Source of the DNA: Escherichia phage vB_EcoM-RPN187
Sequence record: OL770074.2
Reading direction: 5' to 3' (one strand)
DNA length: 64,000 bases
Under the pieces are notes generated by a model. The model was not told the DNA's origin. It worked only from the letters and a program-made list of their open reading frames with translations, and searched no databases. The translations under genes were made by a program, and so were the position numbers. How positions within the stretch are numbered: the stretch's first letter is position 1; the number at the start of each line of letters is the position of its first letter. Positions 17,258 to 47,415 of this stretch are shown one piece after another.

Positions 17258-17908
17258 TTAACCTCGATTCATAAATGCATTAAATATTTGGTCATCAACA
17301 GAAATTTCTAATTCGACTTCAATTGCTTCAGCCTTTTCTTCAGGTGGTAATTCGTATCCACACACTACAATTTTTTCATCGATATCAAAATATACAGAAG
17401 CAATATGATTAATGTTATTTTCGGTTAAGTCTAAATCAACATCAACATCTTTTTGACCTACACTTAAAGGATAACTAATACGGGTTATTTTATTATCTTT
17501 AACAAAGAGTCCACCGACATACTCTGTGCTATGTTTGAAGCTTACACGTTTCCGAAATGAAAGATATGATGCATCTTTACCGTGAGCTCGGCTCATAGGA
17601 CATAATGAATAGCTAGAATAAGAGATGTCAAATCCTACACCTTCAATATGAGCCAACGCGTCATGATTAAACCAATTATAATCATATGCCAAATCCATTA
17701 TATTGTAATATGTGAAAGGCACTGGATTAACATCATACGTTGTACCTTTAAAATCTGCCCAGGCAACAATTTCGTTATCTTTAACAATTACAAAAATTAC
17801 ACCAATATGGTATCCGTTATTATTTTCATTCGGCGTTATATTATAACATTGTGCATTAGGAAATTTACCATATTTAAATGGTGCGTTTTTGTGCATGTAA
17901 TAAATCAT
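17258..17908 (-). CDS. hypothetical protein
   Basis: ORF-track start GTG; ATG (MIYYMHK) with SD AGGTGA; TAATATG junction with sp. Confidence 0.5.
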   Translation of the reverse strand: MIYYMHKNAPFKYGKFPNAQCYNITPNENNNGYHIGVIFVIVKDNEIVAWADFKGTTYDVNPVPFTYYNIMDLAYDYNWFNHDALAHIEGVGFDISYSSYSLCPMSRAHGKDASYLSFRKRVSFKHSTEYVGGLFVKDNKITRISYPLSVGQKDVDVDLDLTENNINHIASVYFDIDEKIVVCGYELPPEEKAEAIEVELEISVDDQIFNAFMNRG

Positions 17909-17909
17909 A

Positions 17910-18203
17910 TTATTCACCTGTGATTTCGGTTACGATATCTTTGTTATCGAAATTAGGGTCACAATACAAAACATAGTTGTACTGCATGATACCGCCAGAC
18001 TTAAGTTGTCCAACAACTTTATTAACCATATTAGGACGGTCTCGTTTAGTGATGTTCATGATATCAGAGAAGATTTGTTGTTCAACATCTTCTTGATTTG
18101 CAGTCATTGACCACTCACAGAGGTCTTTATCATAACCTGCCGTAACTGGAGCTGGTGCACATGATACTGCAAGTAAGATTGCTGCCAATGATAACTTTTT
18201 CAT
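17910..18203 (-). CDS. sp: spackle-like periplasmic protein with signal peptide
   Basis: 97 aa as T4 Sp; N-terminal signal peptide MKKLSLAAILLAVSCAPA; SD AGGAG. Confidence 0.65.
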   Translation of the reverse strand: MKKLSLAAILLAVSCAPAPVTAGYDKDLCEWSMTANQEDVEQQIFSDIMNITKRDRPNMVNKVVGQLKSGGIMQYNYVLYCDPNFDNKDIVTEITGE

Positions 18204-18232
18204 TTTAACTCCTTAGTTGATTTGATAGGACT

Positions 18233-18262
18233 ACTATACCATAGTCCATCTATAATGTAAAC
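18233..18262 (-). promoter_or_regulatory. early promoter: -35 GTTTAC, 18 nt, -10 TATAGT
   Basis: minus-strand read upstream of sp. Confidence 0.5.
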
Positions 18263-18266
18263 AACT

Positions 18267-18515
18267 TTATTCTTTTTCGCGAATAATAATTACTTGTTGA
18301 GGCTGCTGGGCAGATTTCTTTTCGGCAACGATAGACCAAATTAAAGTTCCAATCCAACCAACCATCGTCCAGTTAAAGAGTAAAGACACAAAGAAGATTG
18401 CTGTTGTGCTTTTTGTGCCACGAATAAGTGCGATTACCCAAGGCAACATGTAAATGATGATTGAACCAATACCTGCGATTAAAACCGCTACTGAACTAGC
18501 TACGAATAATTCCAT
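18267..18515 (-). CDS. hypothetical membrane protein (2 TM)
   Basis: 82 aa hydrophobic, ATG, SD GGAAA. Confidence 0.55.
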   Translation of the reverse strand: MELFVASSVAVLIAGIGSIIIYMLPWVIALIRGTKSTTAIFFVSLLFNWTMVGWIGTLIWSIVAEKKSAQQPQQVIIIREKE

Positions 18516-18543
18516 GTTAATTTCCTCTTGATTTGTTATGTTT

Positions 18544-18573
18544 ATAATATCTTATTTTAACTTTGGTGTAAAC
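18544..18573 (-). promoter_or_regulatory. early promoter: -35 GTTTAC, 18 nt, -10 TATTAT
   Basis: minus-strand read upstream of 18267..18515. Confidence 0.5.
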
Positions 18574-18576
18574 CAA

Positions 18577-18945
18577 TTAGTTAAATTTGTTTAAACGTTC
18601 AATACACTGGACGTAGTTATTTGCAATTTGTTTCTGGGTGGGCTCTTTACCAGTTGTTTCAACATAACGAATGAATGCGATTTCAGTAGCCTGTAGACAA
18701 TGTTCTTTAACACGTTGTTCTTTTGACAATGCTACAGTATCAGAGTCACGATAACGTTGAGCATAGGCATCAGCTTGAATCATTCGATTACCTACAGTAA
18801 CAGGGTCTTCCACTTCAACTTTAGGTTGGTCATACTGTTTAACATTCGGATTGTAAATCAGTTGGCCAACGTTATTAGGGATAAAGCCATGGGCACCACA
18901 TCCGGTTAATCCAAATACCATTGCTAAAGCGATTAATTTTTTCAT
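18577..18945 (-). CDS. putative lipoprotein
   Basis: 122 aa; signal peptide with lipobox LTGC. Confidence 0.6.
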   Translation of the reverse strand: MKKLIALAMVFGLTGCGAHGFIPNNVGQLIYNPNVKQYDQPKVEVEDPVTVGNRMIQADAYAQRYRDSDTVALSKEQRVKEHCLQATEIAFIRYVETTGKEPTQKQIANNYVQCIERLNKFN

Positions 18946-18973
18946 TTCAATTTCCTCTGTAGTTGATAGAAAG

Positions 18974-19003
18974 ATAGTAACACAGTATGTGGTGCTTGTA
19001 AAC
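18974..19003 (-). promoter_or_regulatory. early promoter: -35 GTTTAC, 18 nt, -10 TACTAT
   Basis: minus-strand read upstream of lipoprotein gene. Confidence 0.5.
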
Positions 19004-19015
19004 AGTTATTTAAAA

Positions 19016-19204
19016 TTATCGAAAATCTGCTTCAAAAACTTTCTCGTCATTAACAAATGCTTTAACTAATGCGTTGTTCACTTCAGCAAGTTGTACCGTA
19101 ACCCACTCGATTTCTTCGCGATCACCTGATAACATGATATCTTTAGTGAACATCTCGCCGCTTTTAAACCAACCGATAAAAGTAACTTTAGTTAATTTGC
19201 TCAT
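19016..19204 (-). CDS. dmd: Dmd-like antitoxin (discriminator of mRNA degradation)
   Basis: 62 aa from ATG (MSKLTKV) with SD GAGGA; FIGWFKSGEMFTKDI...AEVNNALVKAFVNDEKV matches recalled T4 Dmd; T4 position upstream of gene 41. Confidence 0.7.
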   Translation of the reverse strand: MSKLTKVTFIGWFKSGEMFTKDIMLSGDREEIEWVTVQLAEVNNALVKAFVNDEKVFEADFR

Positions 19205-19518
19205 ATTTCCTCGCAAAATGCCCATTCAGCGTGATAAACTGTAGCACCTTTAGTATTATTCATTTGAACTACGTCTACCGGAGAAATTACTCGATAGAGA
19301 CGTGGTTCACCTCCATAAGAGCGTGCTGCTCGTCCTGCATAAATCTTTGCTAAACCGATATCTTCAGTAAAGAATACACGATCCAAGTTTTTCTTACGTC
19401 CTGTTTCAGACAGAACTCCTGTTTCCTCAGGAGGACAAAGCATGTTTTCGATGTTAGCTGAACTACTTGAACCGTGATAAAAAATCTTAAATTCTGCTTT
19501 ACAATCGATGGTTTTCAT
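19201..19518 (-). CDS. hypothetical protein
   Basis: 105 aa, ATG, SD GGAG inside cassette stem. Confidence 0.5.
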   Translation of the reverse strand: MKTIDCKAEFKIFYHGSSSSANIENMLCPPEETGVLSETGRKKNLDRVFFTEDIGLAKIYAGRAARSYGGEPRLYRVISPVDVVQMNNTKGATVYHAEWAFCEEI

Positions 19519-19544
19519 TTTGTTCTCCAGTAGTTGATAGGTCT

Positions 19545-19573
19545 ATAATAACACAACTACTGGAGAAGTAAAC
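19545..19573 (-). promoter_or_regulatory. early promoter cassette: -35 GTTTAC, 17 nt, -10 TATTAT, flanked by 12-bp perfect inverted repeat containing the SD
   Basis: arms ctccagtagttg 19525-19536 and caactactggag 19554-19565. Confidence 0.6.
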
Positions 19574-19948
19574 TTAAAAATGTAATTTAGATATATCTGC
19601 GTTGATTTCGTTTTGGTTTGCGTCATATGCAATTAAACGAACCGCTTTAGATGGGTCATTCAATGCATAGAAATGATGGAACATTGCTCGAACGATATCA
19701 CCATTTACGAGTTTTACCTGGATAGGAGAACCTTTTTCGAGTTGGAAATGTTCATAAGCTTTGATGGTTCGCAGATAATCAAGTTTTTGATTTCCGGCTC
19801 CAACAATTTGTACGATACGTTTGCCCATGTTTTCCATACGAGATACAATAGTTTTAGGAGCAAGAATAACGTAGGTTGCCAGCGGAGAAACTACTTCAAC
19901 AGTTGTGTTTTCGGTGATTGCAGTAAAAATTGCTTGAGACATATTCAT
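19574..19948 (-). CDS. hypothetical protein
   Basis: 124 aa, ATG, SD GAGGAAAA. Confidence 0.5.
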   Translation of the reverse strand: MNMSQAIFTAITENTTVEVVSPLATYVILAPKTIVSRMENMGKRIVQIVGAGNQKLDYLRTIKAYEHFQLEKGSPIQVKLVNGDIVRAMFHHFYALNDPSKAVRLIAYDANQNEINADISKLHF

Positions 19949-19977: not shown

Positions 19978-20007
19978 ATCATATCATGCCTAGAGGAAGA
20001 TGTAAAC
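19978..20007 (-). promoter_or_regulatory. early promoter: -35 GTTTAC, 18 nt, -10 TATGAT
   Basis: minus-strand read upstream of 19574..19948. Confidence 0.5.
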
Positions 20008-20010
20008 CCC

Positions 20011-20033
20011 GAAAGGAGACCGAAGTCTCCTTT
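20011..20033 (-). terminator. stem-loop after gene 41 (GGAGAC-UUCG-GUCUCC), terminator-like
   Basis: 6-9 bp stem with UUCG loop right after gp41 stop; U-run imperfect on minus, stronger on plus. Confidence 0.45.
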
Positions 20034-20036
20034 TTG

Positions 20037-21479
20037 TTAAAATTTTAACTCATTGGCTAAGCTATCTAGGTCAGCACGTGTTGTTTTGGCTTTACCTACG
20101 CGTTCCGTACGATTCATCTCTGCCTGACGCATCTGAGCACCTGCGTTTTCATTTACTGTGTTAGGTGTGTTCATGCCTTCTTGCTCAATCTCAACCCATT
20201 TCTGGTTGCCTTTACGTACACCCATCAGGAATTTATTCCACTTATTCTTATCACCGTATCGTGATTTGATTTGTTTGATAAGTTGTTGTTCAGCTTGTGC
20301 AAGTTCTTCAGTTTCAATTACGGCCAACATGAAATCTGCCGTTGCTGGTAAACCTGCTGATTCTGCAATATCGCTCATGTTCATATCCGAAGCATCCCAT
20401 GCTGCACGTCCTACTTGAGCTGCAGTCCATAGAACTGTTTCAGATTCTACTGCTAATGCACGAAGTTCTTCTGCGATAGCTTTAACTAATGTGTAACTAT
20501 TTTCAGTGTAAACTCTGATACGACAAGACCCACAAATACCTAAGTAATCAACCATGATTACAGATGGCACAAAGTTCTTCTTGAGTTTCAATTCATTAAG
20601 CAATGCACGGAATGTATTAGCATTAGCTCCACCAGTAGGATACTGTTTAACTACTAAACGTCCTAATGTAGATTTTGAACGCCATTTTTCCATCTTGGCT
20701 TTATATTCAGCATAAGATACGTTACCATCATCAATATCATCAAGCGATACGTCAAGCATGTTTGCATCTATACGCTTAGCGCAAACTTCTTCGGCCATTT
20801 CCATAGAAATATAAAGAACATTATGACCTGTTTGAAGATAATCTGCAGCAAGTGAACAAAGGCCTAAAGATTTACCAACGTTAACACCAGCCATTAAAAC
20901 ATTCAGTGTACCGGTTTCAGCACCACCTTTAGTGATTTTATTCAGAATGTTTAATTTGAACGGGACCTTACGTGCTTTGTTCAGATAAGAAAGCCAGCGG
21001 GCTTCGTAGTCTTCCATCCAGTCATGTCCAACATAACTATCAAACGAAATTGAAAGTGCTTGACGCATAATATCAGGAATAGCTCCTACGTCAGGCATTT
21101 TCTTGTTACGTTGTTCTGGAGGTAGTTCAGCATTAGACTGAATCTCAATGATTTTGGACGTAGCGTTATACATCGCTTTTTGCTGGACATATTTCTCAGT
21201 TTCTTTAACCAACCATTCGTGGTCTTCAGGAGTATCAGCCAATTTTTCAATTAAGTCTGAAGTTCCTTTATATTCGGCTTCAGTTAAAGAACTGTTATCT
21301 AAAGCCACCTTTAACGCATTGATAGATGGCATTGCATTATATTCGTTAACGTGGCTCTTTATAATTTTAAAGACGTTTTTTGCCGGTCCACGCTCAAAAT
21401 ACTCAGAATCCATATAAGGCCAGACCTTAGAAAAATAAGCCTGGTCATATACTAGATGAGACAAAATAATTTCTACCAC
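20037..21479 (-). CDS. 41: replicative DNA helicase gp41 (DnaB-like)
   Basis: 480 aa; Walker A GVNVGKS; GTG start preceded by SD AAGGAG; MVEIILSHL matches recalled T4 gp41. Confidence 0.9.
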   Translation of the reverse strand: MVEIILSHLVYDQAYFSKVWPYMDSEYFERGPAKNVFKIIKSHVNEYNAMPSINALKVALDNSSLTEAEYKGTSDLIEKLADTPEDHEWLVKETEKYVQQKAMYNATSKIIEIQSNAELPPEQRNKKMPDVGAIPDIMRQALSISFDSYVGHDWMEDYEARWLSYLNKARKVPFKLNILNKITKGGAETGTLNVLMAGVNVGKSLGLCSLAADYLQTGHNVLYISMEMAEEVCAKRIDANMLDVSLDDIDDGNVSYAEYKAKMEKWRSKSTLGRLVVKQYPTGGANANTFRALLNELKLKKNFVPSVIMVDYLGICGSCRIRVYTENSYTLVKAIAEELRALAVESETVLWTAAQVGRAAWDASDMNMSDIAESAGLPATADFMLAVIETEELAQAEQQLIKQIKSRYGDKNKWNKFLMGVRKGNQKWVEIEQEGMNTPNTVNENAGAQMRQAEMNRTERVGKAKTTRADLDSLANELKF

Positions 21480-21488
21480 GATAACTCC

Positions 21489-21830
21489 TTAAAAGAATTT
21501 AAATTTTTTCTTGGCCCGTTCATTAAAAGCTTGTTGTACTTGCATTGTAACACATTTTTCAACATGTGGTGCAAGTTCTGCTTTTCTGTCCTGGTCAAGA
21601 ACTGCAAAGTCCATTACGATTTTACCATCAACCCAGTCTAGTTTTGTAATATAGACTATATGATGAGAACCATCTTCAAGTGTAATCAGAATCTCTTGAA
21701 TGACATTTTCCATTGCTGAACGGATAATTTTAAGAGATTCATTAAACACTCGTTCTTTGCGAATGTCTTCCCCTTCCGAAGAAGGGGATTCATCAACGAT
21801 TTCTAGATTTAAATCATCGAGATTATTCAT
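21489..21830 (-). CDS. 40: gp40-like protein (assigned by synteny), start uncertain
   Basis: between gp41 and uvsX as in T4; internal ATG (MNNLDD) chosen to limit overlap with uvsX. Confidence 0.45.
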   Translation of the reverse strand: MNNLDDLNLEIVDESPSSEGEDIRKERVFNESLKIIRSAMENVIQEILITLEDGSHHIVYITKLDWVDGKIVMDFAVLDQDRKAELAPHVEKCVTMQVQQAFNERAKKKFKFF

Positions 21831-22995
21831 CGAAATCTTCCATTTCGTCAAGGTCATTTTCTATATCTGCTGCAGACGGAGCATCAGAAGTTTTAACCGG
21901 AACTTTAGTTGTTGCTTTGCAATTAATAAGGTCGTTAACAGCGTCATCAACTTCTTTAATAGAAGAGATAGCACCTAGTTTATATTTAGTTTCAATTGCA
22001 TCTCGGAAAGGTTTGTGTTTAAACAAAGGTCCCCAGAATTCTACACAATCAGTAGCTTTAGCACGCCATGATTTTTCTTCACGAATCATTTCGCCAGTTT
22101 CTTCGTCAAGGAATTCACGAGCATACCACCCGGCTTTAGGCTTAACTACAAAACCAATTTCAGTTGCCATTTCCAACAAGCCACTGAATGGGTCGATACC
22201 ACCATCAAAATTAACCGTGATTGGGAAAGTAGATTTTTCTTTAACGGTGCGAGATTTTTCTGCTTTCAGTGTGAAATCGTATCCGGTCAATTCTGTACCT
22301 TCTTTAACCTGACGTTTAGAGATAAAGAATACGGTGTTAGCAGAGTAAAGAATACCTGTACCACCGCCCATAATCTCTTTAGGATACAATCCGCCGATTT
22401 CCATTGCTGTATGGTTGATTGCAACACACGGAATATCTTTAATAGTCAGATACGGAGTCACAATGCGGAATAGAGATTTAAGTGCCTTAGCACGAGACAT
22501 ATCACCTACGACTTTCTCGTTCAATGCATCTTCAGTTTCTTTCTTAGATGCAGTATTACCGATTGAATCGATAAAGATAATAACTTTATCACCGCGTTCA
22601 ATAGCGTCAAGCTGATTAGTCATATCAACTTTAAGCTGTTCGACAGATTGAATCGGAGTATGAACTACACGGTCTAAATCAACACCCATTGAACGAAAAT
22701 AAGATTCCGAAGCACCAAATTCTGAATCATAGAACAAACAAATTGCATCTTTATATTTCTTCATATATGCTGCAACCATGGTCAGACCAAACAACGTTTT
22801 AAAGTGTTTAGAAGGAGCAGCAAAAATAGTTAAGCCTGATTGCAACCCGGCATTCAGTGCACCACCTAATGCAATATTCAACATCGGAATACGAGTAGGG
22901 ACTTCATCGCGATTATTAAACAACTTAGACTTAGTCAAGTCTGCAGTCATTTTAGAAGTAGAAGCTTTAATCAGACGAGATTTTAAATCAGACAT
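21823..22995 (-). CDS. uvsX: UvsX recombinase (RecA-like)
   Basis: 390 aa; N-terminus MSDLKSRLIKASTSK matches recalled T4 UvsX. Confidence 0.9.
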   Translation of the reverse strand: MSDLKSRLIKASTSKMTADLTKSKLFNNRDEVPTRIPMLNIALGGALNAGLQSGLTIFAAPSKHFKTLFGLTMVAAYMKKYKDAICLFYDSEFGASESYFRSMGVDLDRVVHTPIQSVEQLKVDMTNQLDAIERGDKVIIFIDSIGNTASKKETEDALNEKVVGDMSRAKALKSLFRIVTPYLTIKDIPCVAINHTAMEIGGLYPKEIMGGGTGILYSANTVFFISKRQVKEGTELTGYDFTLKAEKSRTVKEKSTFPITVNFDGGIDPFSGLLEMATEIGFVVKPKAGWYAREFLDEETGEMIREEKSWRAKATDCVEFWGPLFKHKPFRDAIETKYKLGAISSIKEVDDAVNDLINCKATTKVPVKTSDAPSAADIENDLDEMEDFDE

Positions 22996-47244: not shown

Positions 47245-47415
47245 TCAATATCCTCTATAAAAGTTGCGATGCGTGCGTTTCGCTTTGCGAAGCTGACGTT
47301 TAGTTGGTCGAACCGTAAATGGTCGTCCGGAGAAAAAATTTGGTTCGGTTTTAATCAACACATACCAATCGTGTTCGCCACTTTTTAATAAACGGTACAA
47401 TAATTTAACTTGCAT
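47245..47415 (-). CDS. possible small basic protein (56 aa)
   Basis: ATG (MQVKLLY) with SD GGAAGAG; ORF-track start TTG. Confidence 0.35.
   Translation of the reverse strand: MQVKLLYRLLKSGEHDWYVLIKTEPNFFSGRPFTVRPTKRQLRKAKRTHRNFYRGY

Follow-up and report, generated by a model that had tools for sequence, protein, structure and literature searches.

Dmd of phage T4 (the product of gene 61.5) is a direct inhibitor of the endoribonucleases RnlA and LsoA (PMC9391042; PMC8266594). In the complex with LsoA it occupies a groove between the second TBP-like domain (TBP2/NRD) and the HEPN domain, beside conserved Arg/Glu residues (PMC8266594). In a T4 dmd mutant the middle and late mRNAs are degraded (PMC3014915), and transposon sequencing shows that T4 needs dmd on rnlAB+ hosts only, E. 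coli K-12 being a natural expresser of RnlAB (bioRxiv 10.1101/2025.11.20.689424). The cognate antitoxins RnlB and LsoB have the same expected outcome, inhibition of the same HEPN RNases (PMC8266594, PMC5308261). RnlB disappears after T4 infection (PMC5308261), and RnlA is inhibited by RnlB and by Dmd in different ways (PMC8266594). In T4, dmd has an early promoter of its own and makes up a unit with tifA; TifA is an inhibitor of ToxN, and the RB69 version was reported to be more potent (PMC9391042). Variable ORFs in hyperplastic regions are bordered by PeSL elements, for which the T4-group consensus is TTTACW-N17-TAYWAT (Arbiol et al., 2010, PMC2839356; Comeau et al., 2014, PMC4122927). RnlB and LsoB are encoded by the host or a plasmid, unlike the phage-encoded Dmd. 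We know of no sequence similarity between Dmd and RnlB or LsoB.

The window (the whole stretch of 64,000 nucleotides from Escherichia phage vB_EcoM-RPN187 analysed here) carries a dmd gene in an arrangement that differs from T4. Over the 1.6 kb of this region the DNA is 97.6% identical to that of RB69, and identity with other Mosigvirus phages reaches 98.4%; on this sequence evidence the phage is an RB69-like Mosigvirus. The genes from the helicase to dmd are:

20037..21479, minus strand: gene 41, replicative helicase (DnaB_C, PF03796)
19574..19948, minus strand: RB69ORF041c homolog, 124 aa, orphan early gene (98% identical to RB69ORF041c; PHROG 10668)
19201..19518, minus strand: RB69ORF040c homolog, 105 aa, with a predicted Arr/Tpt1-like ADP-ribosyltransferase fold; its TGA stop overlaps the dmd ATG
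19016..19204, minus strand: dmd (gene 61.5 homolog), 62 aa, matching PDB 5i8j, PF17587 and T4 Dmd

The gp41 helicase is 99% identical to RB69 gp41 and 86% identical to T4 gp41. The gene order in the window is uvsX-40-41-ORF041c-ORF040c-dmd-imm.1-imm-sp-61.2, and the RB69 record has uvsX, 40, 41, RB69ORF041c, RB69ORF040c, dmd, gp61.4, imm.1, imm, sp and 61.2. The initial annotation had placed two additional genes between dmd and gene 41, at 19201..19518 and 19574..19948, and had noted a departure from the T4 arrangement. Both ORFs are present, and in the T4 record dmd follows gene 41 directly after a 58-bp spacer, with 61.4 next. The two intervening genes are the standard, long-annotated layout of RB69 and Mosigvirus, in which they are hypothetical genes in RB69. 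Compared with T4, dmd of the window phage is a distal cistron behind an ADP-ribosyltransferase-like gene and is without its tifA partner. The same annotation had described dmd as lying upstream of gene 41, which holds in plus-strand coordinates only; all genes from 41 through dmd are on the minus strand and dmd is therefore transcriptionally downstream of gene 41. The gene 40 ORF (21489-21857, minus strand) is 122 aa long when read from the first ATG, against 114 aa (345 nt) annotated in RB69.

The dmd translation (MSKLTKVTFIGWFKSGEMFTKDIMLSGDREEIEWVTVQLAEVNNALVKAFVNDEKVFEADFR) runs in an intact frame from the ATG at 19204..19202 to the TAA at 19018..19016. In the automatic ORF list this frame was extended to an upstream ATG at 19225 to give 69 aa. 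We prefer the ATG at 19204 as the start: a GAGGA stands before it, it shares bases with the stop (TGA) of the 105-aa ORF upstream, forming ATGA (sequence GCGAGGAAATATGAGC), and the resulting 62-aa product agrees with the RB69 annotation and with the crystallised chain. A search of all PDB chains with the 62-aa protein returned two matches: 5i8j ("Dmd discriminator of mRNA degradation"; E 2.5e-37, 61/62 residues identical) and T4 "Antitoxin Dmd" (5hy3 chain B, in complex with LsoA; E 4.6e-17). The protein matched PHROG 2102 (E 4.9e-33) and Pfam PF17587 (Dmd) with 72.7 bits (cut-off 27), covering profile positions 3-59 of 60. The identification as a Dmd homolog, put forward in the initial annotation with a T4 Dmd alignment as the check and lack of similarity as the point against it, is borne out by these matches and by a BLASTP comparison with T4 Dmd, as encoded in the T4 record, which gave 33/59 identical residues (56%, E 1e-22) over the full length. 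The two proteins share the Pfam family, the size (a single domain of about 60 aa) and the early position in the 41-61 interval. In a four-way alignment of Dmd from the window phage, RB69, T4 and Dhakavirus VR5, 31 of 62 positions are invariant, among them the blocks GWF, MFTK and AEVNxALVKAF. Relative to T4 Dmd there is an insertion of two to three residues within a variable stretch (residues 24-33).

RB69 Dmd (NP_861729; PDB 5i8j) is flanked by the same ORF040c, ORF041c and gene 41 and shows the same ATGA overlap. It has I where the window protein has V51, and its C-terminal Gly is absent from the window protein, so that in the pairwise alignment the window protein ends in ...ADFR and RB69 Dmd in ...ADFRG. 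The Dmd fold can be assigned here from the 61/62 identity to 5i8j_A. By homology far above chance, the RB69-like Mosigvirus has its dmd gene in the ORF at 19016..19204. The finding is already known: many Mosigvirus records label the ORF dmd, "Dmd discriminator of mRNA degradation" or "antitoxin", RB69 and its relatives are annotated, the structure is solved and the mechanism is understood via T4. The gene is a textbook phage antitoxin mimic and the finding is useful as a correct annotation.

Because the protein is 56% identical to T4 Dmd and retains the conserved blocks and the conserved position, it is expected, by analogy, to inhibit the host HEPN RNase toxins RnlA/LsoA. Like its T4 homolog, it would be made early in infection and would bind HEPN endoribonucleases of the RnlA/LsoA family in the groove between the second TBP-like and HEPN domains. 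It would thus substitute for the labile cognate antitoxins RnlB/LsoB, which are lost after infection, and the toxin block would spare the phage middle and late mRNAs. For several near-identical phages (mogra, mobillu and NRG-P0074) the recorded host is E. coli K-12 MG1655, which gives circumstantial support for the anti-RnlA role since K-12 expresses RnlAB. In the searchable literature we found no experiments with RB69-type Dmd against RnlA or LsoA. The Mosigvirus protein might instead have shifted its specificity and neutralise another HEPN toxin of the RnlA/LsoA family in natural Mosigvirus hosts. The 56% identity to T4 Dmd and the insertion at residues 24-33 would fit such a shift. Identity between genera is also lower for Dmd (48-68%) than for the neighboring ORF040c (82-88%; about 67% for the gp41 helicase), as expected in an arms race. 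However, half of the residues are invariant across the four phages compared, including the three blocks named above, and close relatives are grown on an RnlAB expresser; we consider a shifted specificity unlikely. Very probably, the locus is dmd of an RB69-like Mosigvirus, acting early against RnlA/LsoA and placed as the second cistron after ORF040c, with accessory cassettes between dmd and gene 41.

The region downstream of dmd differs from both RB69 and T4, where tifA follows dmd. About 207 bp of RB69 are missing directly after dmd, and the window phage is without tifA/gp61.4 at this position. The features in this part are:

18946-19022, minus strand: spacer after dmd, the site at which tifA/gp61.4 is absent by pairwise alignment with RB69; its part at 18974..19022 holds the predicted imm.1 promoter
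18577-18945, minus strand: imm.1 (DUF5481)
18267-18515, minus strand: imm (superinfection immunity)
17910-18203, minus strand: Spackle
17258-17917, minus strand: AdfA, anti-DarT factor (61.2)

The missing segment adjoins the dmd stop, and the protein ends in ...ADFR rather than ...ADFRG. One might therefore read dmd as a decaying remnant or an unexpressed gene, left by a rearrangement that removed tifA and the last dmd codon. We regard this as extremely improbable: the frame is intact, the Shine-Dalgarno sequence is good and the protein differs internally from the crystallised one at a single residue. The tifA-less layout is moreover common to many independently isolated phages, e.g., mogra, PHB12 and ATK47, which give single-piece full-length matches. 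Since many near-identical Mosigvirus records have the tifA-less form, the presence of tifA is polymorphic in Mosigvirus. This variation may predict host-range differences on toxIN-carrying hosts.

A search of the rest of the window found no tifA ortholog. A 56-aa ORF at 47245..47415 on the minus strand (MQVKLLYRLL...FTVRPTKRQLRKAKRTHRNFYRGY) matches Pfam DUF7279 with 48.9 bits; RB69 TifA belongs to the same family (72.1 bits). Its Pfam family makes this ORF, which is remote from the dmd locus, a distant paralog in the TifA family. Downstream of dmd (17258-18945, minus strand) the genes form a counter-defence and exclusion cluster; the T4 record has neither imm nor imm.1 annotated in this interval. 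With dmd, AdfA, Spackle and Imm, this stretch of the 41-61 region is marked as a counter-defence/exclusion island. A divergent T4-like metagenomic contig (ERR14173678_55933, positions 90-2194; L010) carries an ORF041c-like gene (52% identity), an ORF040c-like gene (82%), Dmd (48%) and Spackle, and further downstream of Spackle it has two DUF7279 (TifA-family) genes.

The main interest of the locus lies in ORF040c, a very conserved Arr/Tpt1-like mini ADP-ribosyltransferase candidate that is apparently co-translated with dmd. Its homologs form 140 clusters at >=60% identity, and matches were found in 609 phage records from Straboviridae of Escherichia, Klebsiella, Acinetobacter, Aeromonas, Vibrio and other hosts. 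Among 38 close family members the invariant positions are H15, G16, E38, G40, R41, K43, N44, F49, T51, D53, Y60, R63, S67, G69, G70 and E103. H15-G16 is also invariant in 56 members of the broad family and falls on the Arr HGT motif in the alignment, and E103 is invariant among close relatives only. The AlphaFold model is confident (pLDDT 87.9, pTM 0.79). Its best structural match is the RNA 2'-phosphotransferase Tpt1 (PDB 9ld3), with 75 of the 105 residues aligned to the 179-aa chain. The aligned part of Tpt1 is, we take it, the NAD-binding lobe. The model has the ADP-ribosyltransferase fold and not the two-lobe organisation of Tpt1/KptA: it matches the NAD-binding lobe only, without the RNA-binding N-terminal lobe.

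Sequence profiles point to Arr. ORF040c itself scores below the Pfam threshold and has no Pfam or NCBIfam match; three of the 38 family members match Arr-ms weakly (best E 0.026), and a narrow family profile gave no meaningful match in PDB. The broadened profile matched only Arr chains in PDB (2hw2/9iaf, E 1.1e-3; Arr-2, E 0.013), with YHG[ST] aligned to the Arr HGT motif and VFFT aligned to IYIT. Relatives found by the ORF040c profile at E <1e-21 reach Arr-ms (PF12120) in the same region with 26.9-31.5 bits (cut-off 25). In a BFVD search with ORF040c a phage "Ms Rifampin ADP-ribosyl transferase" was matched at E 1.3e-8, and there were no T4 proteins among the significant BFVD matches. An exhaustive profile search yielded 220 clusters, many of them with the region as a domain within proteins of 250 to 3,900 aa. 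In these large proteins the ORF040c-like region is above the Pfam threshold for Arr-ms or adjoins an ART-PolyVal domain. One relative (P0168) is a fusion of a portal protein, an ORF040c-like domain and a 2H phosphoesterase.

The second and third active-site positions of Arr-ms are, as we take them, Tyr49 and Asp84. ORF040c has Phe49 at the position equivalent to Arr Tyr49, and the profile alignment ends at Arr residue 81. ORF040c was not filed as an Arr family member because it is sub-threshold in Pfam, has Phe at the Tyr position and leaves the third position unaligned. It also differs from the Arr rifampin ADP-ribosyltransferase (PDB 2hw2, 9iaf; PF12120) in size, 105 aa against about 140 aa, and in setting, Arr being a resistance gene and ORF040c a phage early gene. 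We describe ORF040c, by modelled fold and distant homology, as a stand-alone Arr/Tpt1-like ADP-ribosyltransferase domain and a putative enzyme. A few GenBank records already name its homologs "putative ADP-ribosyl transferase". We found no experimental work on the family in the literature, and RB69 is not mentioned in the survey of Iyer et al. (2022; PMC9503650). A stronger reading would place ORF040c in the Arr/Tpt1 (H-H-h) clade as a new, uncharacterised family of phage mini ADP-ribosyltransferases that are enzymatically active, serving in early counter-defence or RNA repair and possibly complementing Dmd against metal-independent RNase toxins. A conservation above that of the helicase, the occurrence in 609 records and the use as a domain in giant polyvalent proteins and in the portal-2H fusion argue for it; we offer it as a speculation that is rather unlikely.

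The adjacency of ORF040c and dmd is not confined to Mosigvirus. The order ORF040c then dmd is also found in Dhakavirus VR5 (41, ADP-ribosyltransferase gene, dmd, 61.4, sp) and in the metagenomic contig, and in all three lineages the ORF040c stop codon overlaps or adjoins the dmd start codon. Such an arrangement would be expected of a functional pair, in which Dmd blocks the HEPN RNase and the ADP-ribosyltransferase handles RNA ends (e.g., a 2'-phosphate) or modifies the toxin. The match to the Tpt1 NAD lobe would fit, as would the P0168 fusion with a 2H phosphoesterase, the partner of KptA in RNA repair (PMC9503650). On the other hand, T4 carries dmd, and its 16-25 kb interval yielded no homolog of ORF040c. 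In PEi20, Entb_45, PM2, KP15, Acj133 and Aes012 the ADP-ribosyltransferase gene is followed by unrelated small ORFs, with no adjacent dmd. With 75 of 105 residues aligned, ORF040c also does not include the RNA-binding N-lobe of Tpt1. An obligate ADP-ribosyltransferase-Dmd pair was rejected, as each gene is found without the other, and a functional pairing is in our judgment quite unlikely. The 58-aa KP15_203, which follows the ADP-ribosyltransferase gene of KP15, was considered as a hidden Dmd and proved to be an unrelated, hydrophobic, membrane-like peptide. In several Tevenvirinae genera ORF040c is the first gene behind gene 41. Because the two genes occur independently, the simplest reading of their adjacency is that both are placed at the start of the hyperplastic 41-61 region, and not that they are obligate partners.

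ORF041c is much rarer. Among 5.8 billion proteins its homologs form only two clusters, with 97% and 52% identity. The 52%-identical homolog sits at the same position in the metagenomic contig (order ORF041c-like, 105-aa ORF, Dmd, Spackle), and the kept gene order speaks for ORF041c as a real gene. Pfam and NCBIfam gave noise only and no family assignment was obtained beyond PHROG 10668; the AlphaFold model, built from a 3-sequence alignment, is unusable (pLDDT 36). As judged from its homologs, ORF041c is a lineage-restricted orphan.

The minus strand was scanned for early promoters with the consensus TTTACA/T, N16-17, TATnAT, and five T4-early-type promoters were predicted by this consensus. 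Together with two hairpins they are:

20012..20033, minus strand: predicted stem-loop GGAGAC-UUCG-GUCUCC immediately behind the stop codon of gene 41 (folding energy -16.2 kcal/mol; z -3.3)
19978..20006, minus strand: predicted promoter before ORF041c, TTTACA-N17-TATGAT, TG-extended (consensus scan and spacer alignment)
19545..19572, minus strand: predicted promoter before ORF040c, serving ORF040c and dmd, TTTACT-N16-TATTAT (consensus scan)
19518..19572, minus strand: predicted hairpin in which the -35 region is paired with the ORF040c Shine-Dalgarno sequence, PeSL-like (inverted repeat and RNA fold)
19002-18974, minus strand: predicted promoter before imm.1 (consensus scan)
18572-18544, minus strand: predicted promoter before imm (consensus scan)
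18261-18233, minus strand: predicted promoter before sp (consensus scan)

The scan found no early promoter directly before dmd. Since dmd has no promoter of its own by this consensus and its start codon overlaps the stop codon of ORF040c, we infer that it is the distal cistron of an ORF040c-dmd unit, translationally coupled to ORF040c. Transcription from the predicted promoter at 19572..19545 would pass through ORF040c and translation would reach dmd via the ATGA overlap, giving a two-gene early unit. This promoter aligns with the promoters that follow gene 41 in T4, VR5, PM2 and PEi20.

The hairpin at 19518-19572 is stable (-22.1 kcal/mol, z -5.1; 0/200 shuffles were as stable) and carries the -10 element of the promoter in its loop. 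It is predicted to hide the ORF040c ribosome-binding site on read-through transcripts only; RNA started at the 19572..19545 promoter would not contain the 5' arm, and its ribosome-binding site would therefore be free. The promoter used would thus govern the translation of ORF040c. The promoters at 20006-19978 and 19572-19545 are accompanied by hairpins, and the content between gene 41 and dmd varies among T4, VR5 and the window phage. The same composite of stem-loop and early promoter with variable flanking ORFs is found in PeSL; the copies at the 41-ORF041c-ORF040c junctions of the window phage are not described in PMC2839356 or PMC4122927.

The spacers after gene 41 have a common plan in the window phage, VR5, PM2 and PEi20: the gene 41 stop, AAATTTTAA, a hairpin of the same type, GTTTAC, N17, TATnAT, a Shine-Dalgarno sequence and ATG. 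Of this plan the T4 41-dmd spacer has only the promoter, Shine-Dalgarno and ATG parts, with no hairpin in the alignment. In VR5, the spacer that separates gene 41 from the ORF040c homolog aligns as a chimera, consisting of the 5' part of the window 41-ORF041c spacer and the 3' part of the ORF041c-ORF040c spacer. This one spacer alignment, the sole basis for recombination here, suggests that ORF041c, together with a promoter, entered as a cassette at the promoter that separated gene 41 from ORF040c. Insertion of a cassette at a promoter fits the PeSL model (PMC2839356, PMC4122927). We read ORF041c and ORF040c as accessory cassettes within the hyperplastic 41-61 region; each has a predicted early promoter and a stem-loop of its own.
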